A DNA stretch of 64,000 nt. It comes from an uncultured Eubacteriales bacterium. GTDB taxonomy: Bacteria; Bacillota; Clostridia; Christensenellales; CAG-138. Both the position numbers and the translations under genes were made by a program. This document shows positions 3,717-64,000 of the stretch, in pieces (positions within the stretch are counted from its first letter, which is position 1; the number at the start of each line of letters is the position of its first letter). The stretch is taken from the NCBI GenBank assembly GCA_902801845.1, contig CADCJW010000001.1, forward strand, positions 16,376-80,375. The letters are read 5' to 3'. The notes beneath the pieces are model-generated. The model searched no databases. It had not been told where the DNA came from and saw nothing but the letters and a program-made list of their open reading frames with translations.

Positions 3717-4025
3717 TTATTCCTCCGGATAATCCTCCTCATACTGAGGACGGGCCTTGTGCTTCTTCTTTTTGCCTTTTTTGCCGTAGAACAGCTTCCA
3801 GGTGCAGATGAGGAAAAAGATTCCCAAGAGCAGCGCGAGGGCGGCGACGATCACGTCCAGATATCGGGTGACGAAGACCTGATCGCCCAAAAAGTGGAGC
3901 ATGGGATTGAATCCGTCCAAAATATAAAAGAGGATGTATACAACCGAGAGCACGATGGTCGCGTTGGCGACGATGGTGGAAATAAGTGTAAACCAACGGG
4001 GCAGAGCTTTTTTCTTTTTCTTCAT
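3717..4025 (-). CDS. small membrane protein with Lys-rich termini, function unknown
   Basis: 102-aa ORF with two clear hydrophobic spans. It starts 3 nt after the stop of the upstream gene, so it is probably co-transcribed. Confidence 0.55.
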   Translation of the reverse strand: MKKKKKALPRWFTLISTIVANATIVLSVVYILFYILDGFNPMLHFLGDQVFVTRYLDVIVAALALLLGIFFLICTWKLFYGKKGKKKKHKARPQYEEDYPEE

Positions 4026-42384: not shown

Positions 42385-42471
42385 GCGGGAATGGCGGAAT
42401 TGGCAGACGCGCACGGTTCAGGTCCGTGTGAAAGCGATTTCATGCAGGTTCAAGTCCTGTTTCCCGCACCA
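42385..42471 (+). tRNA. tRNA-Leu (CAG), long variable arm, CCA encoded
   Basis: GCGGGAATGGCGGAATTGGCAGACGC... Anticodon loop TTCAGGT. Confidence 0.9.
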
Positions 42472-42473
42472 AC

Positions 42474-42507
42474 AAAAAACAGAGTCCATCCGGACTCTGT
42501 TTTTTGT
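42474..42507 (+). terminator. intrinsic terminator of the tRNA operon
   Basis: ACAGAGTCC-ATCC-GGACTCTGT followed by TTTTTGTT. Confidence 0.85.
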
Positions 42508-42517
42508 TGCATGGAAT

Positions 42518-50967: not shown

Positions 50968-51908
50968 GATCGCTGCTGCTCATCTGCGGCCCTACGGCCT
51001 GCCATAAAAGCGAAACGGCCCTGCGGATAGGGGGACGGTGGGGGGGAGAGATCCTTTCCATCGACTCCGTTGCCGTGTATCGAGGCATGGACATTGGCTC
51101 AGCAAAGCCCGATCCATCGGAACGGCGACGGGTGCCTCATCATCTCATCGACATCGTGGAACCGGACGATCGTTCCTTTTCCGTGGCGGCCTTTCAGAAG
51201 GCGGCGGACGAGGTGTTGGCGGACCTGGTCCGTCGAAACGTCCAGCCCATCCTGGTGGGGGGGAGCGGCCTCTATTGCGATGCGGTGCTGGAGGATATGG
51301 GTTACGCCCTGCCTTCCGATGCAGCGCTCCGAAAACAGCTGGAAGCGGAATATGACGCCGATCCACAGCTTTTTTTCGATCAAATGGCTAAGGATGACGT
51401 CCCATCGGGCGAAAAGCTCCATCTAAACGACAAGAAGCGGGTGGTGCGGGCCCGAGAGGTGTTTTTGCTCAGCGGAAAGCCCTTTTCCTCCTTCAACCAG
51501 GCGTATTCGGCGGCCCAAAGGAACAGTCGCTATCCGGCCATCCGCGTAGGGCTCACCATGCCTCGAGAAAAGCTGTACGCGGCCATCGACGCCCGGGTGG
51601 ATCGGATGATGGAGCAGGGGCTTCTAAACGAGGTAAAAGGGCTTAGGGATAAGGGATACGACAGGCGACTGCCCGCAATGCAAGCCATTGGCTATGCGCA
51701 GCTGCTCTCTTTTTTAGAAGGGGAGGTCACGTTGGACGCGGCGGTGGATGCCATCAAGCGTTCTACGCGGCAGTTCGCCAAAAGGCAGCTGACCTGGTTC
51801 AGGCGAGACGAACGGATACGCTGGTTCGATTGCGCGGACTATGGGGCGGCCTATGAACAGATTGAGGAGTATGTAAGGGAGACGGTATTTCATGACGGAT
51901 GTATATGA
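50964..51908 (+). CDS. miaA: tRNA dimethylallyltransferase
   Basis: DSVAVYRGMDIGSAKP, HHLID and RQLTWFR. ATGA overlap with mutL. P-loop reads GPTACHKS (see findings). Confidence 0.88.
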   Translation: MRSLLLICGPTACHKSETALRIGGRWGGEILSIDSVAVYRGMDIGSAKPDPSERRRVPHHLIDIVEPDDRSFSVAAFQKAADEVLADLVRRNVQPILVGGSGLYCDAVLEDMGYALPSDAALRKQLEAEYDADPQLFFDQMAKDDVPSGEKLHLNDKKRVVRAREVFLLSGKPFSSFNQAYSAAQRNSRYPAIRVGLTMPREKLYAAIDARVDRMMEQGLLNEVKGLRDKGYDRRLPAMQAIGYAQLLSFLEGEVTLDAAVDAIKRSTRQFAKRQLTWFRRDERIRWFDCADYGAAYEQIEEYVRETVFHDGCI

Positions 51909-53154
51909 GCTGGTCCAAGGGGCAGAGAAGCGGCTGCAGTCGGCTTTTGCGCGTCAGGAGAAGATAGCGTTTATCAACGAGCGCCGCGTGCTGGACGCCC
52001 TGCGGGCGGAACCGGTCTCTCCCCGGCATTTCGCGCCCACGGAGGGATATGGCTATGACGATCTGGGCCGGGATGCCCTGGACAGGGTGTTCGCCCGGGC
52101 CCTGCAGGCAGAGGATGCCTTGGTCCGTCCCCAGATCGCCAACGGGACCCACGCCATCTTCCTGGCCCTGAGCGGCCTTTTGGAACCGGGGGACGTGGCG
52201 TTTTCCGCCTCTGGCAGGCCCTATGATACGCTGGAAACGGCGGTGGGCCTGAGTGGGCGGGAGCCCAACGCCTTGAGCCGCTTCGGCATCGAGTTTCGCA
52301 TGGCTGACTTGAGGGAGACGGGGGAGGAGCCCTTCGATCTATGCGCCATTCTGCAAGGGATCGTGGACCATCCCGAGGTGAAGATGCTCTATGTGCAGCG
52401 GTCCCGAGGCTATGCCTGGCGGGAGTCCATTTCGGTGAACAGGATGGCGCCTCTGTTTCAAAAGGTGAAAGAGGTGCGCCCCGATATCATCATCGCCGTG
52501 GACAACTGCTATGGGGAGTTCACGGAGGAGCAGGAGCCCTCCGCCGTGGGGGCAGACGTGATGATGGGGTCCCTCATCAAAAACTGCGGTGGCGGCATCG
52601 CGCCAACCGGCGGCTATATCGCAGGGCGCAAGGATCTGATCGAGCGAATCAGTTACCGACTCACGGTGCCCGGCTCCGGTCGGGAGGTTGGATCCTACGC
52701 GGCCTCCTATCGGCCCTTTTTCCAGGGGCTGTTCCTGGCCCCCCATACGGTGCTGCAATGCTTGAAGACGGCCATGCTCTTCGGAGAGGTGTTCGATGCC
52801 ATGGACTATGACGTGATGCCCGTAGGGGATCGTCCCCGGGCGGACATCGTCGAGTCCATCCGCTTCAAGGAGCCGAAGGAGCTGATCGCTTTCTGTAAAG
52901 CGGTCCAGCATGCCTCTCCGGTGGACAGCGACGTGACCCCGGAGCCCTGGGACATGCCCGGTTATGCGGATCCGGTGATCATGGCGGCGGGGACGTTCGT
53001 CCAGGGCGCCACCACGGAGTTGAGCGCCGACGGGCCCATCCGCCCGCCTTATGCCGTATATATGCAGGGGGGACTCACCTATGAACATGGGAAACTGGCC
53101 CTCCTGGAGGTCGCTCAGGCGGTTATGGAGCAGAAGGAGGCGGGGGAGCGATGA
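51892..53154 (+). CDS. YnbB/'aluminium-resistance'-type methionine gamma-lyase family PLP enzyme
   Basis: N-terminus RRVLDALR..HF.PTEGYGYDDLGRD is typical of the family. About 420 aa. Lies downstream of miaA. Confidence 0.7.
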   Translation: MTDVYELVQGAEKRLQSAFARQEKIAFINERRVLDALRAEPVSPRHFAPTEGYGYDDLGRDALDRVFARALQAEDALVRPQIANGTHAIFLALSGLLEPGDVAFSASGRPYDTLETAVGLSGREPNALSRFGIEFRMADLRETGEEPFDLCAILQGIVDHPEVKMLYVQRSRGYAWRESISVNRMAPLFQKVKEVRPDIIIAVDNCYGEFTEEQEPSAVGADVMMGSLIKNCGGGIAPTGGYIAGRKDLIERISYRLTVPGSGREVGSYAASYRPFFQGLFLAPHTVLQCLKTAMLFGEVFDAMDYDVMPVGDRPRADIVESIRFKEPKELIAFCKAVQHASPVDSDVTPEPWDMPGYADPVIMAAGTFVQGATTELSADGPIRPPYAVYMQGGLTYEHGKLALLEVAQAVMEQKEAGER

Positions 53155-53438
53155 AGAAATGCATCCTGGGCCTGAAGGCCGTTTGCGACGATTGCGGCGC
53201 CTGTGAGGACGATCGCTGCGAGCTGGACCCCAACAAGCTGTGCGACAATTGCTATAAATGCTTGGAGATCACCGAATCCTATCGGGAGATCCCCATCGGC
53301 AGGGTGCTGATGGACGGGAGCGACAGCGGGGCATTATATGTGCTGGACCCCAACGAGCAGATGGAGCCGGAGATGGACCTTACGGAAGATCAGGGGGATT
53401 CGACTGGCTCTCCGGACGATCTGGAGTGGGAGGAATAG
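53151..53438 (+). CDS. small Cys-rich acidic protein, unknown function
   Basis: 95 aa with 8 Cys in the first 37 residues (CDDCGACEDDRC...CDNCYKC) and an acidic tail. ATGA overlap with the upstream gene. Confidence 0.5.
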   Translation: MKKCILGLKAVCDDCGACEDDRCELDPNKLCDNCYKCLEITESYREIPIGRVLMDGSDSGALYVLDPNEQMEPEMDLTEDQGDSTGSPDDLEWEE

Positions 53439-54483
53439 GATCCTCCCGCAATTTGATATATTTGGTCGCCTGACGCCGCCGTTCCTCCTGGATGGCGGCG
53501 TAGTGCTTCCGGGTGGTGTTCACGTCCTTATGGCCCAACACGTCGGCTACCAGGTAGATATCGCCGCTCTCCTGATAGAGCATGGTGCCGTAGGTGCTAC
53601 GCAGCTTGTGGGGCGTGATCTTCTTCAGCGGCGAGGCGATCTTGGCGTATTTCTTCACCAGGTTTTCCACAGCACGAGCGGTGATCCGCTTTCGCTGCAG
53701 GGAGAGGAAGAGGGCGTCCTCGCTGCCCGGCAGGGGGGCTATGAGCTCCCGCTGCTCCAAATAGGTCAACAGCGCGTTTCTCACCTCCGGCCCGAAGGAG
53801 AGCATCTCCTGATTGCCGCCCTTACGGGTCACGACGAAGGCGTCGGTGGAAAAGTCCACGTCGTCGATATCGATGCCCACCAGCTCGCTGATACGGATGC
53901 CGGTGCCCAAAAACAGGGTCAAAATGGCCGTATCCCGGATTTTGGTGGCCTGATGAAAGGCCTTTTGCTTTTCCGTCAGCCCTTTTCCGGCTTCGGCGAT
54001 GTCTAAAAGATCGGCCACTTCGTTGGCTTCCAGGCGGACTATGGCTTTTTCGTGGATTTTCGGCGTATCCACCAGGGAAGCAGGGTTGTTTTTGATGAGC
54101 TCCTGGCGGTGATAATATTTAAAAAATGCCCGAATTGCGGACAATTTTCGCGCTTTTGCCCGCTCGTTGTTCTCCCGTTCCCGCTCATCGTCGCCCACAT
54201 AAAGTGAGATATGCTCCAAAAACAGCTCGATATCCAGGGCTGTGATCCGATCCAGGTCCTCCAGCGTCAGAGAGGCAGGGGCCTTTCCCTGACAGGCTTC
54301 CACCTGTTCCGTACAGAACTTGAAAAAGTTTTTTAAATCGATGGCGTATCCGTACCGCGTCAAGATGCTGGTTTGCAATTCCATGGCGCGAAAATACAGA
54401 CCGGCAAACTTGGGAAGCTCCGAAAGCACCGATCGAAGCTTCAGCGTGTAATCTTTTTTCCGTTGGAGGGGGTAGTCGCTCAT
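53380..54483 (-). CDS. tyrosine-type site-specific recombinase (Xer/integrase family), 367 aa
   Basis: C-terminal catalytic region: GTGIRISELVGI (Arg box), TPHKLRSTYGT (HxxR), LGHKDVNTTRKHY (His...Tyr). Start set to MSDYPL; the upstream extension would need a TTG inside the palindrome. Confidence 0.85.
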   Translation of the reverse strand: MSDYPLQRKKDYTLKLRSVLSELPKFAGLYFRAMELQTSILTRYGYAIDLKNFFKFCTEQVEACQGKAPASLTLEDLDRITALDIELFLEHISLYVGDDERERENNERAKARKLSAIRAFFKYYHRQELIKNNPASLVDTPKIHEKAIVRLEANEVADLLDIAEAGKGLTEKQKAFHQATKIRDTAILTLFLGTGIRISELVGIDIDDVDFSTDAFVVTRKGGNQEMLSFGPEVRNALLTYLEQRELIAPLPGSEDALFLSLQRKRITARAVENLVKKYAKIASPLKKITPHKLRSTYGTMLYQESGDIYLVADVLGHKDVNTTRKHYAAIQEERRRQATKYIKLREDPIPPTPDRPESQSNPPDLP

Positions 54484-54496
54484 AGCCTGAATTTTA

Positions 54497-54538
54497 AAAC
54501 AACTATTCGTTAAAGACAAGTTTAACGAATAGTTGTTT
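54497..54538. repeat. perfect 18-6-18 bp palindrome (AAACAACTATTCGTTAAA-GACAAG-TTTAACGAATAGTTGTTT)
   Basis: Read directly from the sequence. It lies between the rnhA stop (54566) and the recombinase start (54483). Confidence 0.9.
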
Positions 54539-54565
54539 ACAGAAAAGTAACAGAAACGGCGTTTT

Positions 54566-55018
54566 TCAGGCTTTTTGCCCCGAAATGATCTGCTGGGCCG
54601 CTTCCCGGGCCAGCTTGTCGCAGCGGTTGTTGAACTCGTTGTCCGCGTGACCTTTCACTTTATGAAACTGTACGCGGTGCTTCTCCAACAACACGATCAA
54701 CGCTTTCCACAGGTCCTGATTCTCCACGTTGGATTTAGAGGCCGTTTTCCATCCGTTCTTCGACCAAGTCTCCAACCACTTTTTTTCCAACGCGTTGCAC
54801 AGATACGCGCTGTCCGTATACAGGTCCACCTGGCACGGCTCCTTCAACAGTTTCAACGCCTCCAACGCCGCCGTGATCTCCATGCGGTTGTTGGTCGTGC
54901 TCTCGGCGCCGCCGGAGCTCTCCTTTTTATGCTGATTATACATCAAAACGCAGCCCCAGCCCCCTGGGCCCGGATTACCGGAGCATGCGCCGTCCGTATA
55001 GATCGTGACTTGTTTCAT
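54566..55018 (-). CDS. rnhA: ribonuclease HI
   Basis: [38 protein letters not shown] and [18 protein letters not shown]. Confidence 0.92.
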
Positions 55019-55021
55019 ATA

Positions 55022-55927
55022 TTATTCTATATCCTTAATTAATATATTATATTTTAATATGGATTCGATTTGAAAGTGCTTTACGGCAGCTCCGCATTCG
55101 ACCGTATTCATTGTACCACTCTTCGCCAGGAATGTCGATATAGTATCCAATATCCAGGCGGCATATTCGTCCATTTTAGCCATGGGCGATGTTTTTTCCA
55201 CGGACGCAAAGCCTTGCCGGGCCGCGGAAAGTCGCACAGTCAGCTCGTTCATGAACTGAATCGCTTGGGCGGGCGTCAGGCTCTTTTCATCATATTTCAG
55301 GGCAAAATCGGTCAGCTCATACGGTGCTTTTTGCACGGTCTCCATGGCGCTTTTGATCCGTTCTGCATCCGCTCTTTGGCCGGATAAGGTCACCTCCACC
55401 CCGTCAGGATGGATGGAATAGGCCGTGTTTTCGTATCCGCTGCTGCGCACCTGCTGCTGGACCTGCAGCAAGCTTTCCTGATCCGCATAGGCTGCGGCAA
55501 AAACTCGGCTGAACCCCTGCTCGTCCTCATAGATGTACCCGCCGGCTCCCATGCTTTGGATGGCCAATGCCTGGGTGTGGGCTTCCTCTGGGTCCGCATA
55601 AGCTCCCATTTGCAGCAGATACCATGAGGTCTCCGGCAGCTCAAAGACGATCCGCTCGGGCTCAGAAGACTCCACGTTTGAGGGCAATACGGCCGGCGCC
55701 TGGGCCATGACCGCCTCGCTGGACGGTTCAGGCGTAATAAGCACTCTTCCCAACATTTTGGCAAAGAAGGCAGGCGTGATATATTTGTCCACCAGTCTGT
55801 CTCCCAAGTAGGACGTGCTCAACAGGAACACGGACAACGCGCAGCATATCAGGATCAATATCACCGAGCCTCCGGTGTAGCCCTTCCCTGTTTCCCGTCG
55901 GCGACCTTTGCCATACACCTGTGACAT
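55022..55927 (-). CDS. SPOR-domain membrane protein
   Basis: Start at MSQVYGKG after the GGAGGAGG RBS. One TM segment. SPOR-like WYLLQMGAYADPEEAHTQALAIQSMGAGGYIY...FRVFAAAY. Confidence 0.7.
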   Translation of the reverse strand: MSQVYGKGRRRETGKGYTGGSVILILICCALSVFLLSTSYLGDRLVDKYITPAFFAKMLGRVLITPEPSSEAVMAQAPAVLPSNVESSEPERIVFELPETSWYLLQMGAYADPEEAHTQALAIQSMGAGGYIYEDEQGFSRVFAAAYADQESLLQVQQQVRSSGYENTAYSIHPDGVEVTLSGQRADAERIKSAMETVQKAPYELTDFALKYDEKSLTPAQAIQFMNELTVRLSAARQGFASVEKTSPMAKMDEYAAWILDTISTFLAKSGTMNTVECGAAVKHFQIESILKYNILIKDIE

Positions 55928-56015
55928 ATGAAAACCTCCTCCGTATCCTTTTGTGAAAAGGATATGCAACGGAGGCATCGATGCAGTACAAACGATTTGA
56001 AGGGGTTTATTTCGA

Positions 56016-57944
56016 TTATTTCTTCTTTGTGCCTCTTGCCTTGAATCGAGGCTTTTCAGGCTTTTTATCCTGCTCCAGGACCTCGAAGGGGGCATCCATG
56101 GAGCCTTCCTTGCTCTTTTCCTCCTCCGTCGGCTCGTTGGAAAGCTCCGTATACATGATGGAGACGTCGTCCACCGGTCCCAGGGCGATGGCGTTGGATA
56201 CGTATTTTTTCACGGTGAAGGTGAAGCAGGTCCAATGTCCCACCTCGCTTTGGACCGTGATCTGTTCCCCCAGCTTGTCCATGATCTGCTTGGCGATGGA
56301 CAATCCGAGGCCTGTTCCGCCCTCCTTACGGGATTTATCCGTCTTATAGAAGCGCTCGAACACATGGACCATGTCCTCCGGAGCGATGCCGCAGCCTGAA
56401 TCCCAGACGGACACGTGAATATCGTTGGCGTCCTGATGGGCGCCGATGCGGACGGTGCCGCCCTCCCCGGCATAGCGCATGGCGTTGTCAAGCAGGATCA
56501 CAAGCACCTGCTCGATCCTGTCCGGATCGGAAATCACATCGGGCAGATCCTCGTCCATATCGAGATCCAATCGGATCCCCTTCTGCTGAGCGTTTTGACA
56601 ATAGCTCTGGTACACGTCGTCGATGAGCTCGCCGATGTTGAAGCTGGTCTTCTCCATGTATTCCGTGCCGGACTGGAGCCGGGAAAGCTGAAGCATGTCC
56701 GTGATCAGCCGGGAAAGACGCTCCACCTCGTGGAGCATGATGCCGTAGTACCGCATCTTGACGGCGTCGTCCTTGATCATCCCATCAGAAAGAGGCTCCA
56801 ACAGGCCTCGAATGGCGGTCAGCGGCGTCCTGAGCTCGTGGGAGATGTTGGCCACATAATCCCGGCGCATCTTTTCCAGATTCTCGATCTCCGTCACGTC
56901 CTTGAAGAGGCCCACCACGCCCGTGCAGGTGTCGTTCTCCCCCATCACCGGCACGATGGATATCCAAAGGAACTTATCCCCGGGCAAGGTGTACCGAAGG
57001 GTGTTGGGCTCCCGGGTTTCCAATACATGACGGAAGGCTTCCCAGATCTCCGTATCGGGGATGAGATCGTGGGGCGTTTTTACGTCCACGGCACCGAACA
57101 TCTTCATCAGTGCGGGGTTATAGTGGGTCAGATTTCCCGTGTTGTCCAGGGCCGCCACCCCATCGGTAAAGCTGGACAGGATATACCAAAGCTGCCGCTT
57201 TTCGCTGTCCAGCTGATAGATGGTTTGGGAGATGGTATCGCTCATACGGTTCATGGCCCGGGCAAAGATGCCAATCTCTCCATGGACGTTTTCGTTAGCA
57301 CGAACGCTGTAATTCCCGTTGGTCAGCTCGATGGCTACCTTGGTCATTTCGCTGATGGGCTTGTTGATCTCCCGAATGCTGGCCAGGGCGATGATAAGCA
57401 GCACCGGCACGATGCAGATGCCCAAAACACGAAGGGCGTAGTTCAGCTTCGAAAAGGCGGCGTCGATATGCTGTATCTCCCGCACGAAGATCAAGCCGCC
57501 CTCGATGGTCCCGTCGTTTTTGTAGAGCGGTTCCCCCACGGCGATGGCGTTGATATGGTTGGTCAGCTGCAGGTCCCGCTTTTTGACGTGCTGGCCCTCC
57601 AGGATATCGAACTGGACGTTTTGGATGTAAGCGTTGTTGTATTCGGCAATGTTGGTGACGGCTTCGATGCCGCCGGAGGCGTAGTAAAAATAATAGTATT
57701 TCACATCCGCCGTGCTACTCAAAAAGCCAAGGGACTTGGAAAAGGAGTTCCGGTTGGAAAACATGTCGTCCCGAACCTCGTAGATGCCCTTGGCTGAGTT
57801 CATGACGGAATCGAGAGAATCCAACTCCAGCCCGATATAGGTTTTTCTGCCGAAATAGGAATAGGCTCCCAAAATGGCGATGTCAGCGAGAAGCAGCACC
57901 AAAATGAACAGTGCCAGCGTCCTGCGAAACAGAAACCCTTTCAT
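56016..57944 (-). CDS. sensor histidine kinase (2 TM, HAMP, PAS, HisKA, HATPase_c) with charged C-terminal tail
   Basis: H-box SHELRTPLT, N-box LLDNAMRYA, G1 DSGCGI and G2 GGTGLGLSI. Confidence 0.9.
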   Translation of the reverse strand: MKGFLFRRTLALFILVLLLADIAILGAYSYFGRKTYIGLELDSLDSVMNSAKGIYEVRDDMFSNRNSFSKSLGFLSSTADVKYYYFYYASGGIEAVTNIAEYNNAYIQNVQFDILEGQHVKKRDLQLTNHINAIAVGEPLYKNDGTIEGGLIFVREIQHIDAAFSKLNYALRVLGICIVPVLLIIALASIREINKPISEMTKVAIELTNGNYSVRANENVHGEIGIFARAMNRMSDTISQTIYQLDSEKRQLWYILSSFTDGVAALDNTGNLTHYNPALMKMFGAVDVKTPHDLIPDTEIWEAFRHVLETREPNTLRYTLPGDKFLWISIVPVMGENDTCTGVVGLFKDVTEIENLEKMRRDYVANISHELRTPLTAIRGLLEPLSDGMIKDDAVKMRYYGIMLHEVERLSRLITDMLQLSRLQSGTEYMEKTSFNIGELIDDVYQSYCQNAQQKGIRLDLDMDEDLPDVISDPDRIEQVLVILLDNAMRYAGEGGTVRIGAHQDANDIHVSVWDSGCGIAPEDMVHVFERFYKTDKSRKEGGTGLGLSIAKQIMDKLGEQITVQSEVGHWTCFTFTVKKYVSNAIALGPVDDVSIMYTELSNEPTEEEKSKEGSMDAPFEVLEQDKKPEKPRFKARGTKKK

Positions 57945-57950
57945 TTTGGA

Positions 57951-58640
57951 TCATTCCAACTCGAATTTGTAGCCCACGCCATAGATGGTCTTGATGCTCC
58001 AGCCAAGACCCGTGGAGTCCAGCTTCGCCCGGAGGCGCTTGATATGGGTATCCACCGTCCGGGTCTCGCCGGCAAAATCGTATCCCCATACCTTGGAAAG
58101 CAGGGTGTCCCGGGTGAACACATGGCCAGGATTGGAGGCCAGCAGGAACAATATCTCAATCTCCTTGGGTGTGCAGATGACGGGTTCGCCACGCAGAAGC
58201 ACCGTGTAGCTGTTCAGGTCGATCATCAAACCGTTGTGCTGGATCACGTTCTTGCCGGAGTCCTCCCCCGCCGCATGGTTCTCCGTACGGCGCAGGATGG
58301 CCTTGATCCGAGCCACTACCTCCCGGGGACTGAAAGGCTTCACAATATAATCATCGGCACCCAGCTCCAGCCCCACGATCTTGTCGACCTCCTCCCCCTT
58401 GGCGGTGAGCATGACGATGGGGACCTGGCTGGTCTTGCGGATCTCCCGGCACACGTCGATGCCGGATTTGCCGGGCATCATGATGTCCAGCACGCACAGG
58501 GAAACGGTGCTGTCAGCCGAAGCCACGGCGGAGATGCCGTCATAGCAATCCACGGTCTTGAACCCTTCCGCTTCCAGATATATTTTTAACGACTCGTGTA
58601 CAATGGGATCATCGTCTGCGATCAAGATCTTCGTATCCAT
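57951..58640 (-). CDS. OmpR/PhoB-family response regulator
   Basis: ILIADDD, LDIMMPG and MLTAKG in the receiver domain. Winged-helix VWGYDF..RTVDTHIKRLR. Confidence 0.92.
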   Translation of the reverse strand: MDTKILIADDDPIVHESLKIYLEAEGFKTVDCYDGISAVASADSTVSLCVLDIMMPGKSGIDVCREIRKTSQVPIVMLTAKGEEVDKIVGLELGADDYIVKPFSPREVVARIKAILRRTENHAAGEDSGKNVIQHNGLMIDLNSYTVLLRGEPVICTPKEIEILFLLASNPGHVFTRDTLLSKVWGYDFAGETRTVDTHIKRLRAKLDSTGLGWSIKTIYGVGYKFELE

Positions 58641-58754
58641 AGGACTTGCCTCCTGCTAATTTATTCCGCATATATTATAACAAATCTGCAAAAAATGGAA
58701 AGACATAATTCTTTTTGACGCAAACCGTTTCCATCCGCGTCACATTTGGGGCCG

Positions 58755-61454
58755 TCAATAGCCGCGCATCCGGTCGTAGGCCTCCCGCAGCACGGCGGTG
58801 GCTTCCTCCACATCGGCCATAGAAGAAGCATCGGTCGCCCGGACGATCAGATCGGCAAGCTCGTCCCGCTCCTCCTCAGAGAGCTCTGAAGTGGAGGAAA
58901 GGAAAGCCGTAGCCTCGCTGATCAGGGCGTCTCGCTCCATCTTGGCGGAGGAAAGATTCTCGGCCAGGTTGCACACAGGCAGGCTGTTGATGAAGGCGTC
59001 CGGCGTCTTATCCGTGCGTACATAGGTATCCCCGAATATCTTTTCCAGCACGTCGTCCGAAAGGTCGAAGAACATGGAATCGGGACGGATGAGCACGTAG
59101 GTCACGTCCTCCACCGAATTTGGATCGCAGGACGCGCCAGCGCGGCAGTTGCTCTCCCGACAGATGCTCACCGTCACATGCATATCGCAGGCTTCCGTGG
59201 GCACGGAGTCATAGTCGAACCAGTCGGTGACCAGATTGAACTTCTTACCATTGCCCTGATACTGGATGCAGCCGGCGGAGGCCAGCTTGCCGGAAACGGG
59301 GCAAACGGTGCGCTGGACCATGCCCAGCATGGTGGTGTTTTCGTCGATGATGGGCTCGTCCACATGCCCCTGCATAATCTTTTCCATGAACGCCTTCCAG
59401 AGAGCCGCAGCGTAGTCGCCGCCGGTGGAGCCGGTCTTCAGCTTGTTGCTGGGCAGATCGTGGCCGATCCAGACCACGGCGGTGTAATCGCAGGTCATGC
59501 CCGCGAAGTACACGCTGGAATACTTGGAGTTGGTGCCCGTCTTCCCCGCCACCGTAAAGTCGTCCATCCGCGCCAGCTTGCCGGTGCCGCTCTTCACGGC
59601 GTCGGTCAGGATATCTACCAGCTGATAGGCGGTGCTGGTCTGTTCGTATACCCTGGTAGCACCTGAGCGGATCACGTCCGCGTCCAGGATCACTTTGCCG
59701 TTTTCATCCTCTACCCGGGTGAAGGAGATCGGCGCCCAATAATACCCGTTGTTGGCGATGGCGGCATAGGCGGCGCACATCTGGATGGGCGTGATGCCGG
59801 AGGTGCCCAGGGCAAGGCCGGGGCCGTCCAGATTCAGCTGGCTGGAGGGGATCCCCACCCGCTCCATATACTCTGCCGCCGTGACGACGCCCACGTCTTC
59901 CATCAACACTCGGGCAGCCACCACGTTCAGGGATTGGGCGAGGCCAGTACGAAGGGTGACAAAGCCGTAGGTACGGCTGGAGGAAAGGCCGCCGCCGGGA
60001 TAGCCCTTTTCCGTGCCCCATCCTGCAATGGTCCCCTCCGCATTGATGACGATGGAAGCGGGCGACATGCCCTTATCCAAGGCCGGACCATAGATGGCCA
60101 AAGGCTTGATGCAGGAGCCCACCTCCGTATAGCTTTGAGCGGCCCGATTCAGTCCCTTGCGGATCAGCGGTTCGTCCCGACCGCCCACGATGGCCCGCAA
60201 GAAGCCGCTGGATTGGTCGATGACCACCGCGGCGGCCTGAGGCTCCACGGTCTGGATGGTAACGGTCTCGGATATCTCCTCCGTCAGCATGGCGGCGTTG
60301 CCGTCCGCCAGCTCCGGATACCCGTCCCAGGTGGACAGGGTCTCCTGGACCGTATTCTGTACCTTTGGGTCCACGGTGGTATAGATCTTATACCCGCCTG
60401 TACGGAGCATGTTCTCATAATAGGTACGGTTGGCGGAGGTATCGGGAACGCCGTCCTGGGCCATCCAATGGGTGATCACGTCGGAGATGGCATACTCCAC
60501 GAAGTAGGCCATATCATACATCTTGGCGTTCTTGCTGACCGGCAGGATGGTCTCCACTTCATCGAGAGCGGAAAGATACTGGTCCCGCGTGATGTACCCG
60601 TTTTGATACATCCGTTCCAAAACCAGATTCGTCCGATTCGTCGTCCGATAATAGGGTGTTCCTTCCCGATAGTACATGTTCTGTCGGGGGTTATAGTAAT
60701 ATGGGCTTTGGGTGAGACCGGCCAGCAGCGCGCACTCCCGGATGGTCAGCTCCGAAAGCTCCTTGCCGAAATAGTCTTTGGCCGCCGCCTTCACACCGTA
60801 GTCGGAGCCGCCAAGATAGATATCGTTCAGGTACGCCTCCAGGATTTGGTCCTTATCCACCACCTTCTCCAGCTGGATCGCCAGATACGCCTCCTGGACC
60901 TTGCGCTTGTAGGTGCGCTGGGTCCCCAGGATCTTGTTTTTGATCAGCTGCTGGGTAATGGTACTGCCGCCGGAGGAGTTGCTGTTGCCCAGGATCTCCA
61001 GCACGGCAGAAAAGACGCGCTTGAAATCGACGCCCTGGTGTTTATAGAAGCGAACGTCCTCGATGGACACGAAAGCGTTCTTCAAAATGTCGGGAATGTC
61101 GTTGAGATCGGCCCAGTCCCGATATTCCATGGAGGTGAGGTTGGTGATCTCATGCCCGTTCATGTCATATAGATAGCTGGTCCTGTCGCTTCGGGTGAGC
61201 TGGGACACCTCCAGCATGGGCGTGGAATCCACATAGGCCTTCCCCACCCCGTACACGAGACCGAGCCCGCCGAAGCCCATGACGATCAGCGCAAACAAAA
61301 GGAGCTTGAGTGCGTTGAACAAAACCTCCAACAAAAACGGGCGCTTTCGTTCCGCTTCGGTGAGGGGGTCGCCAACCGTGTTTTTCGGCTTTCGTGTCAG
61401 AGCATGCTGGGTCAAGGCTCGACTTTTTTTGCTGTTCGTAATCTTATTTGCCAT
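58755..61454 (-). CDS. class A penicillin-binding protein (PBP1A-type transglycosylase/transpeptidase)
   Basis: GT51 motifs EDVRFYKHQGVD and GGSTITQQL. Transpeptidase motifs SCIKP (SxxK), SLN and KTGT. Cys-rich C-terminal extension. Start at MANKIT after GGAGG. Confidence 0.9.
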   Translation of the reverse strand: MANKITNSKKSRALTQHALTRKPKNTVGDPLTEAERKRPFLLEVLFNALKLLLFALIVMGFGGLGLVYGVGKAYVDSTPMLEVSQLTRSDRTSYLYDMNGHEITNLTSMEYRDWADLNDIPDILKNAFVSIEDVRFYKHQGVDFKRVFSAVLEILGNSNSSGGSTITQQLIKNKILGTQRTYKRKVQEAYLAIQLEKVVDKDQILEAYLNDIYLGGSDYGVKAAAKDYFGKELSELTIRECALLAGLTQSPYYYNPRQNMYYREGTPYYRTTNRTNLVLERMYQNGYITRDQYLSALDEVETILPVSKNAKMYDMAYFVEYAISDVITHWMAQDGVPDTSANRTYYENMLRTGGYKIYTTVDPKVQNTVQETLSTWDGYPELADGNAAMLTEEISETVTIQTVEPQAAAVVIDQSSGFLRAIVGGRDEPLIRKGLNRAAQSYTEVGSCIKPLAIYGPALDKGMSPASIVINAEGTIAGWGTEKGYPGGGLSSSRTYGFVTLRTGLAQSLNVVAARVLMEDVGVVTAAEYMERVGIPSSQLNLDGPGLALGTSGITPIQMCAAYAAIANNGYYWAPISFTRVEDENGKVILDADVIRSGATRVYEQTSTAYQLVDILTDAVKSGTGKLARMDDFTVAGKTGTNSKYSSVYFAGMTCDYTAVVWIGHDLPSNKLKTGSTGGDYAAALWKAFMEKIMQGHVDEPIIDENTTMLGMVQRTVCPVSGKLASAGCIQYQGNGKKFNLVTDWFDYDSVPTEACDMHVTVSICRESNCRAGASCDPNSVEDVTYVLIRPDSMFFDLSDDVLEKIFGDTYVRTDKTPDAFINSLPVCNLAENLSSAKMERDALISEATAFLSSTSELSEEERDELADLIVRATDASSMADVEEATAVLREAYDRMRGY

Positions 61455-61563
61455 CGAATCCTCCATGTTGATTATAGCATATCGTCGGCCATCTGCAAAG
61501 GATAACGAGGATTGTTCAAAATTCTATTACAATGAATTCCCATAAAAAAATTCAAAATACCCC

Positions 61564-61592
61564 TTTACAAATCGAAACACAGCGGTTATAAT
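61564..61592 (+). promoter_or_regulatory. sigma-A promoter for tRNA-Ala
   Basis: TTTACA, 17 nt, TATAAT. The -10 ends 14 nt before the tRNA. Confidence 0.75.
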
Positions 61593-61606
61593 ACACAACG
61601 TTGCGA

Positions 61607-61682
61607 GGGGCATTAGCGCAGTTGGTAGCGCGCCACAATGGCATTGTGGAGGCCAGGAGTTCGACTCTCCTATGCTCCACCA
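61607..61682 (+). tRNA. tRNA-Ala (GGC), CCA encoded
   Basis: GGGGCATTAGCGCAGTTGGTAGCGCGCCACAATGGCATTGTGG... with the G3:U70 pair. Anticodon loop ATGGCAT. Confidence 0.9.
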
Positions 61683-61683
61683 C

Positions 61684-61717
61684 AAACAAAACACCACCAT
61701 TCGGTGGTGTTTTGTTT
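61684..61717 (+). terminator. intrinsic terminator of tRNA-Ala
   Basis: AAACAAAACACCACC-ATTC-GGTGGTGTTTTGTTT. Confidence 0.85.
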
Positions 61718-61729
61718 ATATAAAAAGAT

Positions 61730-61810
61730 GGAGAGTCGAAGTGGATATGGTAGTAAATTGGTCTCATTTCGCGAGCCCGCGGGCGAGTGTTCGACTCTCC
61801 TATGCTTCCA
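61730..61810 (+). repeat. tRNA-Ala-derived palindromic module: inverted arm, 49-nt loop, sense copy of the tRNA 3' segment
   Basis: 61789..61806 is identical to 61659..61676 (T-loop into the acceptor 3' strand), followed by T+CCA. An 11-bp stem pairs 61730-61740 with 61790-61800. The loop carries GGATATGGTAGTAAATTGG and GCCCGCGGGCGAGTG, similar to the Val module. Confidence 0.6.
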
Positions 61811-61846
61811 TTTCTCGATCCGTTGCGATATAATGCATCAAAAAGC

Positions 61847-62536
61847 ATGGGAGATGAGCCCTTGGAAACCTACCGAAATCCATTCCACGCCAGCCACTTA
61901 TATCTTCGATTGACGGAGGAAGAGGCTGACGCCCTCTCCCCCGCCTGCTTCGCCAAGCTGTTTGAACAGTATGGTCTACCCTTGCAGGTCATGGCCTATT
62001 CCGATGCCATGCGGACCATCTCCTTGCTTCAGCGCTCCGGTTTCGAGCTGAAACGCAGGTGCTATGAGGTTCAAGTCAGCTCATCCGATCTACTTGTACA
62101 TGTATCCAAGGGCATCCCACCGCTATCACTTGCGAAAAAGGGCTCCTCCGCCTACTTTGCCTGCGCAGAGCTGCTGTATCACTACCATCGGGACACCCAT
62201 GCTGCTATTAACCCCTTGACCGTGTCCTTGCCAGAGTTCATGGAAGCTCTTCCGGCTGAAGTACTCTATGATGGCCCATCCGATCGACCGACCTCTGCCG
62301 CTTTTATCGAAGGGAACGAGATCGCCTATCTATGCTCCTTTGATCCAGCCGGATTCCCTGCCTTCGCCCGGTCTTTGCTCGCCGAGCTATTCGACCGCTA
62401 CGATCAAATCGAGTTTGAAGCGGACGACACCGATTGGGCGGCCACGGCGGTCAAGGACATGTTTTTGATAAAGATCGACCGTAGCTTCGACACCTATGTG
62501 TACTTGAACCAGCCAAGTAGGTATGATAAACTATAA
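61847..62536 (+). CDS. hypothetical protein, possibly a degenerate GNAT-like fold
   Basis: Long ORF with host-like composition. Start uncertain (ATG at 61847 or 61802; the track start 61787 is a GTG inside the tRNA copy). The pattern IEGNEIAYLCSF..ARSLLAELF..IEFEADDTDWAATAVKDMF looks GNAT-like but lacks the RxxGxG motif. Confidence 0.45.
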   Translation: MGDEPLETYRNPFHASHLYLRLTEEEADALSPACFAKLFEQYGLPLQVMAYSDAMRTISLLQRSGFELKRRCYEVQVSSSDLLVHVSKGIPPLSLAKKGSSAYFACAELLYHYHRDTHAAINPLTVSLPEFMEALPAEVLYDGPSDRPTSAAFIEGNEIAYLCSFDPAGFPAFARSLLAELFDRYDQIEFEADDTDWAATAVKDMFLIKIDRSFDTYVYLNQPSRYDKL

Positions 62537-62560
62537 AAAACAAATGGGGAGCGTAACGAT

Positions 62561-63046
62561 ATGAAAGCTGCCGTCGTCTTTTATTCTCAGTCGGGCAATA
62601 CAAGGTTCGTGGCCGAGAAAATGGCCCAGATCCTTGGGGCCGACCTTGTCCCCCTGACCCCGAAGAAAGAGTACCCCGATTCCGGGTTCAAGAAGTTCCT
62701 TTGGGGCGGCAAAAGCGCCATGATGGGCGAAAAGCCTGCCCTGGAGCCCTATGCCTTTCACGCGGAACAATATGATACGGTCGTTTTAGGCACCCCCGTC
62801 TGGGCTGGGACCATCGCGCCGCCCCTGCGCAGCTTTATCGCGGAGAACAAAAAGGCCCTGCAAGGCAAGGCTGTGGCCCTCTTCGCCTGCTGCAGCGGCG
62901 GCCCGGGCAAGGTGATGGAAAAGGCGAAGAAAGCTCTGGATCGGGACGCGCTCCTTGCGGAGCTCATCCTCATCGACCCCAAGGACAAGCCCACGCCTGA
63001 GAACGAAGCGCGCATCGCCGCATTCTGCGACAAATTGAAAGGCTAA
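62561..63046 (+). CDS. flavodoxin-family protein
   Basis: MKAAVVFYSQSGNTRFVAEKMA (FMN phosphate loop), about 160 aa. Confidence 0.85.
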   Translation: MKAAVVFYSQSGNTRFVAEKMAQILGADLVPLTPKKEYPDSGFKKFLWGGKSAMMGEKPALEPYAFHAEQYDTVVLGTPVWAGTIAPPLRSFIAENKKALQGKAVALFACCSGGPGKVMEKAKKALDRDALLAELILIDPKDKPTPENEARIAAFCDKLKG

Positions 63047-63057
63047 CAAACGAGTAA

Positions 63058-63090
63058 AAGAAAGCAGGGGATCCTCTCTCCTGCTTTTTC
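63058..63090. terminator. bidirectional intrinsic terminator
   Basis: GCAGGGGA-TCCTC-TCTCCTGC followed by TTTTT, A-rich upstream, between the convergent flavodoxin gene and mtnN. Confidence 0.75.
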
Positions 63091-63103
63091 GTATGTGTCA
63101 GAA

Positions 63104-63811
63104 TCAGGCGTCTTCCAGGAATTTAAGGAGCATGGTGGCGGAAAGATGAGCTGCATGGCGCTCGAAGGCGGCATAGGATTCCGAAGCGGAGCCGTCCGCC
63201 AGATCGGAGATGGCCCGGATCACCAGGAAGGGCACGTAGGCCGCCTGAGCCACCTGGGCGATGGCCCCGCCCTCCATCTCGCAGGCCAGGGCGCCATAGG
63301 TCTCGTAAAGGCGCTTCTTGGTCTCCTGATCGGCCACAAAGGTATCGCCGGTGCAGATGCGCCCCCGATGGATGGCGCTCTCCCCCGCTATGGCTCGGGC
63401 AACGGCTTCAAACCGGTCCAGAAGGTCCTGGTCGGCGGTGAACAGTGTGGGCTTGTCCTTAGGCCCGTCCAGGGTCAGGCAGCCGTCCACGCAGCCCAGG
63501 GCGGCCATGCGAAAGTCGTGCTGGACCAGGTCCGTGCTCAGCACCATATCCCCCAGCTTCAGCTCCGGCCCAACGCCTCCGGCCACGCCGGTATTGATGA
63601 GATAGTCCGGCTTGGAACGGTCGATGAGGATCTGCGCGCAGCGAGCAGCGTTCACCTTGCCGATGCCGCACTTGGCGAGGATCACGTCATGGCTGCCGAT
63701 CCGCCCCTGATAGAAGGTGAGCCCGTACAGCGGATTGGTCCGACAGTAGTCCATCTGTCCCCGGATCATCTGTATCTCCGAATCCATGGCGCCGATGATG
63801 CCGTATGTCAT
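63104..63811 (-). CDS. mtnN: 5'-methylthioadenosine/S-adenosylhomocysteine nucleosidase
   Basis: GIIGAMDSE, KCGIGKVNAA, INTGVAGG and CEMEGGAIAQV. Start at MTYGIIG after GAGGTG. Confidence 0.9.
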   Translation of the reverse strand: MTYGIIGAMDSEIQMIRGQMDYCRTNPLYGLTFYQGRIGSHDVILAKCGIGKVNAARCAQILIDRSKPDYLINTGVAGGVGPELKLGDMVLSTDLVQHDFRMAALGCVDGCLTLDGPKDKPTLFTADQDLLDRFEAVARAIAGESAIHRGRICTGDTFVADQETKKRLYETYGALACEMEGGAIAQVAQAAYVPFLVIRAISDLADGSASESYAAFERHAAHLSATMLLKFLEDA

Positions 63812-63870
63812 TGCCCGCACCTCACTTTTTTCTGATTTCTCCTATAGTATACCAGCCGCAGTCCATCTTT

Positions 63871-64000
63871 TCAATACCCGTTCCAAGGGTCGATGAGGGT
63901 GCCGTTCACAGCGTTTAGGATGAGCAGATCCTCCGGTCGGCGTCCTCCGTCGTAGTGCTCCGTGTGGATGTCCATGTCCAGATAGAAGCACCAGGCGGGC
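63871..64000 (-). CDS. 3' end of an unidentified CDS (5' part lies beyond the window)
   Basis: My translation gives ...PAWCFYLDMDIHTEHYDGGRRPEDLLILNAVNGTLIDPWNGY followed by a stop at 63873-63871. Only 43 codons are visible and there is no motif. Confidence 0.4.
   Translation of the reverse strand, partial: PAWCFYLDMDIHTEHYDGGRRPEDLLILNAVNGTLIDPWNGY

Follow-up and report, generated by a model that had tools for sequence, protein, structure and literature searches.

Single-recombinase Xer systems have been described in Streptococcaceae (XerS), Campylobacterota (XerH), archaea (XerA) and Legionellales. Here a candidate system of this type is reported from a 64,000-nucleotide (nt) stretch of contig CADCJW010000001.1, from an uncultured Eubacteriales bacterium of the Christensenellales (the whole stretch is hereafter the window), in which a perfect palindrome at 54497-54538 lies directly upstream of the gene for a long tyrosine recombinase of 367 amino acids (aa). 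Judged from sequence conservation, the palindrome is very likely the cognate site of the adjacent recombinase. The explanation as a whole, that of a dif-like core recombination site at the replication terminus which serves chromosome dimer resolution and overlaps the promoter of its own recombinase, is considered probable and would, if true, extend single-recombinase Xer systems to Clostridia. A literature search by keywords and motif strings returned no description of this module or of any single-recombinase Xer system in Clostridia, and in a genome-wide survey of dif sites the prediction failed for two Clostridium genomes (PMC3025954).

Among the described systems, that of XerS offers the closest comparison. 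The site of xerS lies directly upstream of the gene and is suspected to form part of its promoter, a layout that has been likened to integration modules (PMC1914069). In common with XerS/difSL, the window locus has one long Xer recombinase (367 aa, as against 356 aa in XerS), a site that immediately precedes the gene, a terminus position, a suspected promoter overlap, and an arm pattern of TTC...AAA, centre, TTT...GAA (TTTCCGAAAA/TTTTCTTGAAA in difSL, TTCGTTAAA/TTTAACGAA in the window). It differs in the architecture of the site, since difSL is 31 bp long with unequal arms and an 11-bp centre whereas the window site is a symmetric 14-6-14, in the sequence of the enzyme (26% identity; 185.7 bits against a family cut-off of 267) and in the hosts, which are Streptococcaceae (Streptococci, Lactococci) there and Clostridia here. 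XerH/difH of Helicobacter and Campylobacter likewise combines a single recombinase (354-362 aa) with a site near its gene, and outer arms matter for binding (PMC5357621), but the match to XerH is weak (PDB 5jjv, 4e-11), the arm sequences are other ones and the difH arms are imperfect repeats. With XerCD/dif (E. coli; CodV/RipX in B. subtilis) the superfamily, the 6-bp centre, the terminus position and the presumed function are shared, whereas that system uses two recombinases of ~300 aa encoded far from dif, and unequal arms in an 11-6-11 arrangement. Cre/loxP of phage P1 has one recombinase, perfect inverted arms and an asymmetric spacer within a site of the same 34 bp (13-8-13 against 14-6-14), but Cre is phage-encoded and its site has an 8-bp spacer, while the window enzyme is chromosomal and conserved like a housekeeping gene. 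In the rtp/Ter system of B. subtilis, an inverted repeat at the terminus immediately precedes the gene of its own binding protein, and autoregulates this gene. A similar arrangement is proposed here, but RTP is a replication-fork arrest protein and not a recombinase, and no RTP-like gene is found at the locus. By the criteria of the XerS family the module is not XerS/difSL, and it is best read as an undescribed variant of the single-recombinase Xer/dif type.

The palindrome, the adjacent recombinase and their conservation

The main elements of the module are the following.

54497-54538, no strand: palindrome, 18-6-18, with a conserved 14-6-14 core at 54501-54534
54501-54514, plus-strand sequence: left 14-bp arm AACTATTCGTTAAA, proposed binding site of one recombinase monomer
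54515-54520: central region, GACAAG on the plus strand and CTTGTC in recombinase orientation; asymmetric 6 bp, proposed crossover region
54521-54534, no strand: right 14-bp arm TTTAACGAATAGTT, conserved as the left arm is
53380-54483, minus strand: tyrosine recombinase of the Xer group, 367 aa, proposed to act on the palindrome
54566-55018, minus strand: rnhA (RNase HI; NCBIfam NF001236, 220 bits), transcribed toward the palindrome

The palindrome consists of AAACAACTATTCGTTAAA (54497-54514), GACAAG (54515-54520) and TTTAACGAATAGTTGTTT (54521-54538); the arms are fully complementary and cannot be extended (54496 and 54539 are both A). Its distance of 13 nt from the recombinase ATG, a start that agrees with the N-termini of homologues, and its perfect 18-6-18 form had been pointed out in the first-pass annotation, and sequence and open reading frame (ORF) coordinates agree with both. 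The same annotation had seen no second copy in the AT-rich stretches it covered by eye, and a scan of the full 64 kb for the 18-mer, at up to 3 mismatches, yields the two arms only (0.01 expected by chance). The longest perfect arm in 20 block shuffles measured 8-13 nt, as against 18 nt at the palindrome, and this result together with the copy-number scan rules out chance or a simple repeat as its source. Arm length by itself is not distinctive, because two further long perfect hairpins are present in the window, at 42470-42509 (18-4-18) and 61684-61717 (15-4-15). These have G+C-rich stems, 4-nt loops and A/T-tract flanks, are located directly 3' of a tRNA cluster and of tRNA-Ala, respectively, and are probably ordinary, bidirectional intrinsic terminators. 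No RNA family came close to its gathering score within 54200-54800.

The recombinase matches the Pfam family Phage_integrase (PF00589) at 1.9e-31 and carries the complete catalytic set (R197, K221, H292, R295, H318 and Y328), which is invariant across the alignment of its relatives; by its residues it is a catalytically intact enzyme of the Xer type. The top NCBIfam family is XerS (NF003462), matched over the full length of the model with a score that remains below the cut-off, as given above. The runners-up, XerC (174 bits) and XerD (159 bits), also stay under their cut-offs of 335 and 330 bits, respectively, and XerA is close as well. On the XerS model the relatives P0081 and P0117 reach 196 and 184 bits. 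The XerS sequence used for comparison scores 558 bits on the same model, and the window protein is collinear with it over 344 residues. Because of the score under the family cut-off and the 26% identity, the sequence is best read as that of a long Xer-type enzyme which is closest to XerS without being its orthologue. The likeness to XerS suggested earlier thus holds for size and for the best profile match, and fails for orthology. The nearest solved structure is XerD (PDB, 2e-24), and no match to Cre was obtained. More than 8000 homologues were retrieved at E<=1e-20, the best 120 being 66-98% identical, and the family members are labelled 'tyrosine-type recombinase/integrase' by NCBI, with nothing more specific. 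The window's own protein is found in metagenome-assembled genomes of uncultured Clostridia.

Conservation was followed both from the gene and from the site. On the side of the gene, the sample comprised 80 species genomes with relatives at 52-92% identity, among them Christensenellaceae, Oscillospiraceae, Lachnospiraceae, Caldicoprobacterales and Alkalibacter, and up to 7 mismatches over 24 arm positions were accepted in a site. A site is present beside the recombinase in 64 of these loci, which answers the question, raised with the original observation, of whether the palindrome is kept next to orthologues; in 18 of them the arms are identical to those of the window. The consensus of the 64 sites is AACTATTCGTTAAA-N6-TTTAACGAATAGTT, most arm columns being 0.8-1.0 conserved and the gap always 6 bp, and in recombinase orientation the core AACTATTCGTTAAA-CTTGTC-TTTAACGAATAGTT recurs down to ~52% protein identity. 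The unit of 18-6-18 that was originally put forward is therefore real as a palindrome, but what is conserved is the 14-6-14 core (54501-54534). Arms and loop keep their sequence from one order to another, and the flanks do not. Some clades have altered both arms in concert, e.g. GCAAAA with TTTTGC, and others possess unequal arms that are stable within the clade, such as CTATACGACAAA-TACCGA-TTTTTCCAAAAG in Lachnospiraceae and CTATGCGCAAAA-TACAAG-TTTTACGAAAAG in the loci L031-L035. In these unequal-arm clades 10-11 of the 14 positions are complementary, and both the half-sites and the 6-bp spacing are kept. The fact that half-sites remain conserved after complementarity has been lost argues for a recombinase core site and not for an RNA hairpin. 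There is one strong site per locus, and no locus was seen with two strong sites around an insert.

Starting from the site, viral and metagenome contigs were scanned for perfect arms around any 6-nt spacer. This gave 128 occurrences, 91 of them with the recombinase adjacent. Read in gene orientation, the spacers of these 91 are CTTGTC (49), CTTGTG (18) or CTTGCG (12) in 79 cases. The spacer CTTGTC, on either strand, was found in 51 sites, the recombinase being adjacent in 50 and the remaining site lying next to rnhA where its contig stops. In viral contigs, with gaps of 0-16 allowed, 6 bp was the only gap seen between extended 14-bp arms; other spacings of the 9-bp core represent unrelated sequences. 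The site is within 400 nt of the recombinase gene in 139 related loci, and elsewhere up to 2.7 kb away. In 92 loci the gene order is rnhA, site, recombinase and a convergent gene of the methionine gamma-lyase family; in the window the latter side of the module reads as follows.

51892-53154, plus strand: methionine gamma-lyase family gene, convergent and syntenic with the module in many species
53151-53438, plus strand: ORF of 95 aa, convergent and syntenic with the module in many species

As an observation of its own, locus L177 (937-1000) carries a site with the spacer GACAAC and, 20 nt further on, an extra left arm (CCCCAACTATTCGTTAAAG), which may represent an accessory half-site or be left over from recombination.

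An alternative is that the palindrome is only a terminator of rnhA, or a 3' stabilising hairpin, and that the proximity of the recombinase is incidental. The palindrome begins 27 nt past the rnhA stop codon on the same strand and folds as RNA into a hairpin of -25.3 kcal/mol (z = -6), the minus-strand stem ending in UUGUUUU. In 104 loci the gene next upstream is rnhA, and in the window genome other long perfect hairpins, with AAACAA...TTGTTT flanks, serve as terminators behind tRNA genes. However, the stem is A+T-rich and lacks a proper T-run, and a consensus scan for intrinsic terminators (G+C-rich stem plus T-run) makes no call. Nor does a terminator fit with arms and loop that are conserved across orders between diverging flanks, with several clades in which only 10 of 14 arm positions are complementary and the half-sites are conserved nonetheless, with the 47 loci that have site and recombinase without rnhA, or with a spacing fixed at 6 and the use of the same arms inside coding sequence as inversion sites (see below). 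An exclusive role of this kind is very improbable, but the hairpin may also end rnhA transcripts as a secondary role.

For the module read as a recombinase with its core site, the following mechanism is proposed. One recombinase monomer would bind each 14-bp arm, two sites would synapse in a tetramer, and strands would be exchanged at the edges of the asymmetric 6-bp centre, which would give the site a direction, as in loxP. Placed at the terminus, the site would resolve chromosome dimers with one recombinase, as in XerS/difSL and XerH/difH, and recombinase on the site would block its own promoter, the -35 element of which is in the centre and the -10 element after the right arm. If this is true, the recombinase and its 34-bp site also constitute a new pair and a candidate genetic tool for Clostridia.

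Position relative to the replication terminus

The evidence for a terminus is local skew, taken from the 64-kb window and from the flanks of related loci.

54000-54540, no strand: terminus-type switch in GC skew, with the cumulative G-C maximum of the window at 54128

Of the 27 2-kb bins that precede 54 kb, all but one (14-16 kb) have a positive skew, and the five bins that follow are all negative; the cumulative maximum falls ~0.4 kb from the site. Among 57 related loci with sufficient flanking sequence, 55 have a greater skew to the left of the site than to its right; 41 show a switch from plus to minus and a single one the reverse. In 30 of 49 loci a local cumulative maximum is found no more than 1.5 kb from the site, and the maxima gather at two places, the site and the recombinase 3' end. 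Large ORFs run on the plus strand from ~27.9 to 53.4 kb, where seven tRNAs (41.8-42.5 kb) are also on the plus strand, and on the minus strand from 53.4 to 61.5 kb, after which the plus strand is used again, with tRNA-Ala. The resemblance of the locus to a replication terminus, first noticed from its strand pattern, is thus confirmed for that pattern and is matched by the skew switch. The motif GGGNAGGG, which follows the pattern of FtsK-orienting polar sequences (KOPS) of E. coli, is distributed 17:2 between the plus and minus strands in 1-54476 and 0:2 in 54559-64000, and the 7-mers with the strongest strand skew in the left part reverse on the right (22:51). As gene orientation confounds such counts, this polarity is regarded as no more than consistent with motifs converging on the site. 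Within the window neither a classical dif, the E. coli dif nor difSL was detected (up to 9 mismatches of 28-31; arms alone, up to 6 of 22), and a second tyrosine recombinase is likewise absent from the 64 kb. The proposal in the first-pass annotation of a lox/dif-like core site for a lone Xer-type recombinase at the terminus is in agreement with these results, as it is with the conserved site, the single copy in the window and XerS as the best profile.

Because the module sits at the replication terminus, dimer resolution is its most likely role, and by analogy with the described systems it is rather likely to be the main one. If the reading is true, the site provides a terminus marker for thousands of uncultured gut and rumen genomes.

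A tyrosine recombinase with a site beside it also resembles an integration module, as has been noted for xerS (PMC1914069), and the pair could then belong to a mobile element, resident or degraded, as its integrase and attachment site. Against this, the module occupies one syntenic position across families and orders, at 52-98% protein identity, among rnhA, a SPOR-domain protein, a two-component system, a penicillin-binding protein (PBP) and the methionine gamma-lyase family gene; there is one site per locus, and relatives on viral contigs are nearly absent (5 matches, 50-55% identical, all from short contigs of possible host origin). An origin in a mobile element is hardly credible on these grounds.

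A number of points weigh against a dif-like module at the terminus. Skew is confounded with gene orientation, and the skew of the related loci is not fully independent, because the block of rnhA, site, recombinase and mgl is inherited together. The switch of coding strand comes ~1.1 kb away from the site, where the recombinase gene has its 3' end, and this gene itself would therefore be transcribed head-on to replication. XerC and XerD are reported to be widespread in Firmicutes (PMC8136486). In 14 more distant orthologue loci no recognisable site was detected within 4 kb. Conversely, at locus L110 (10179-10208) rnhA is accompanied by a perfect site with the spacer CACAAG and by no recombinase within 10 kb and 4 kb on its two sides; the loci L122, L143, L157 and L190, of shorter sequence, show the same context, and in this human-gut lineage the recombinase gene has presumably moved elsewhere in the genome. 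The conserved CTTG of the spacer could reflect the constraint of a -35 element (see below) instead of a crossover requirement. Arms identical to the chromosomal ones are paired in an ~8.9-kb element (below) with a recombinase only 27% identical to that of the window, so the arms are not simply tied to one recombinase lineage. Lastly, it is from sequence that we infer binding, cleavage, recombination, dimer resolution, control by FtsK/SpoIIIE and autoregulation.

Relatives of the site on plasmids, phages and circular DNA

The 37 occurrences without an adjacent recombinase are mostly on mobile DNA, with spacers other than the chromosomal ones. In addition, plasmids encode paralogues of the recombinase (31-41% identity), which are long enzymes each with a palindrome of its own at or near the gene start.

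L321, 2362-2391: B. hungatei plasmid pNP144, ATTGCGTTAAA-CATATC-TTTAGCGCAAT, 68 nt upstream of the recombinase
L323, 1332-1362: B. proteoclasticus plasmid pCY360, TAGTTCGCTAAA-N7-TTTAGCGAACTA, with a 7-bp spacer, ~23 nt inside the annotated start of the coding sequence
L324, 1412-1444: C. botulinum plasmid pFWSKR40E1, ATTACTATAAA-GTAACA-TTTATAGTAAT, 37 nt upstream of the recombinase

The start of the pCY360 recombinase is probably annotated too far upstream, and the plasmid pairs of recombinase and palindrome are probably multimer-resolution modules. For the pNP144 recombinase, a search at 1e-40 found no close relative encoded by another plasmid.

On phages, the 14-bp arms of the chromosomal site appear in at least nine contexts, 0-70 nt after a small terminase gene (GP3_package) and before the large terminase gene, each time around a different 6-bp spacer.

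Phage sites, first group: L081 783-812; L083 2053-2082; L085 5155-5184; L086 1005-1034; L115 4760-4789
Phage sites, second group: L243 8577-8604; L244 1212-1239; L249 2919-2946; L281 3289-3316

No relative of the window recombinase was found in the searched stretches of these phage contigs, and the phages may borrow the recombinase of the host, e.g. to circularise or resolve their DNA. In P1, loxP is located near pac and helps to circularise the terminally redundant phage DNA, a position that parallels the phage copies beside small terminase genes. Integration of such phages into the chromosomal site was considered and is not supported, as none of the phage spacers equals a chromosomal spacer and a pair of flanking sites was seen at no locus.

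A different use of the arms is seen on viral contig L286, a fragment of 12.7 kb with four sites (12-39, 483-510, 1092-1119 and 1224-1251) that form two inverted pairs. The sites read ATTCG(T/C)TAAA-N6-TTTAACGAAT, with the matched spacers CTCTAA/TTAGAG and CAATGG/CCATTG. Across one site, a tail-fibre-like ORF of 970 aa reads DKINSLNSNLTN; an opposite-strand cassette with a Gp10_C domain also reads DKINSLNSNLTN across the partner site and then diverges, and a third cassette opens at another site, so that one N-terminus joins in frame at least three alternative C-termini. By its layout this is a multiple-inversion system for the phage tail fibre, in which the arms therefore do serve as crossover sites.

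Chromosome-type arms also recur on the ~8.9-kb element, with the spacer TACGTC and at 270 nt upstream of its own Xer-like recombinase of 316 aa.

L102, 8295-8324, and L114, 374-403: sites of the ~8.9-kb element, the flank of which is shared by L127 and L147

The element is taken to be circular because L114 bridges both ends of L102. Separately, in L127 (~3737-3856) the palindrome runs at least 45 nt past each arm, which may stem either from a fold-back artefact of the assembly or from a genuine long inverted junction in this element family.

These findings bear on the alternative that the palindrome is a true site of the recombinase with another role, either as part of a general host system for plasmids and phages or as a docking site for integrating elements. 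In its favour are the same arms, with other spacers, on phages, on the 8.9-kb circular element and in other mobile contexts, together with the related recombinases that have their own palindromes on plasmids. On the other hand, the chromosomal copy is fixed at a terminus-type skew switch in most species and kept in stable synteny with housekeeping genes, without flanking mobile-element genes, and no locus with two strong sites around an insert is known from the sample. As the main function, another role is improbable; it is partly compatible with dimer resolution at the terminus, because plasmids and phages, as well as integrative elements, exploit known Xer systems, cer and psi being examples (PMC5357621). 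By analogy, it is hypothesised that the mobile elements seen here borrow the host enzyme as cer, psi and Xer-exploiting integrative elements do elsewhere. If true, phages and plasmids would here exemplify the borrowing of a host enzyme through host-type arms combined with spacers of their own. A wider generalisation can be offered only tentatively and is itself rather unlikely: that many Clostridia (Christensenellales, Oscillospirales, Lachnospirales and others) use this Xer system to resolve chromosome dimers, with a lox-like, perfectly symmetric 14-6-14 site that acts as both dif and promoter, and that phages and small replicons copy the arms with their own spacers and so make the host enzyme serve them, for circularising or resolving phage DNA at the site behind the small terminase gene, close to the start of headful packaging, for resolving plasmid multimers and for tail-fibre inversion.

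Overlap of the site with a putative recombinase promoter

A further element overlaps the palindrome.

54491-54519, minus strand: recombinase promoter-like element, -35 TTGTCT (54519-54514), 17 nt, -10 TAAAAT (54496-54491)

It matches the consensus at 9 of 12 positions, the TTG of the -35 hexamer being supplied by the spacer and its last base by the arm, and many relatives have an extended -10 (TGnTAnAAT) at the same place, directly after the right arm. In the lineage of the window, we infer that the site doubles as the recombinase promoter, the spacer holding the -35 element and the arm being followed at once by the -10. As the site overlaps the promoter, bound recombinase should repress its own gene, an idea also put forward for difSL-xerS (PMC1914069).

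Such an overlap would also fit a palindrome that is only an operator, bound by a dimeric repressor or by the recombinase acting as a repressor, without recombination. The promoter-like TTGTCT-17-TAAAAT within it, the extended -10 kept directly after the right arm in many relatives and the conserved-arm palindrome, which is typical of operators, all fit with this. Yet the position at the skew switch is kept even at loci with the promoter elsewhere, with a flipped spacer or with as much as 2.7 kb between site and gene, and the sole consistently linked gene is that of a catalytically intact recombinase. Furthermore, matched inverted pairs of the same arms drive the tail-fibre inversion system, and phage copies lie between packaging genes with no recombinase relative in the stretches examined. 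A pure operator is accordingly an unlikely reading. The terminator and the operator that the first-pass annotation offered as alternatives to a recombination site are thus not upheld as exclusive explanations, although the promoter overlap is seen and termination of rnhA may co-occur.

The -10 element is separated from the ATG by 7 nt in the window and by 6 nt in L001 and L002, and no usable Shine-Dalgarno sequence is present; because of this the recombinase mRNA is probably leaderless. In more distant relatives a leader of 35-40 nt with GGAGG is found.

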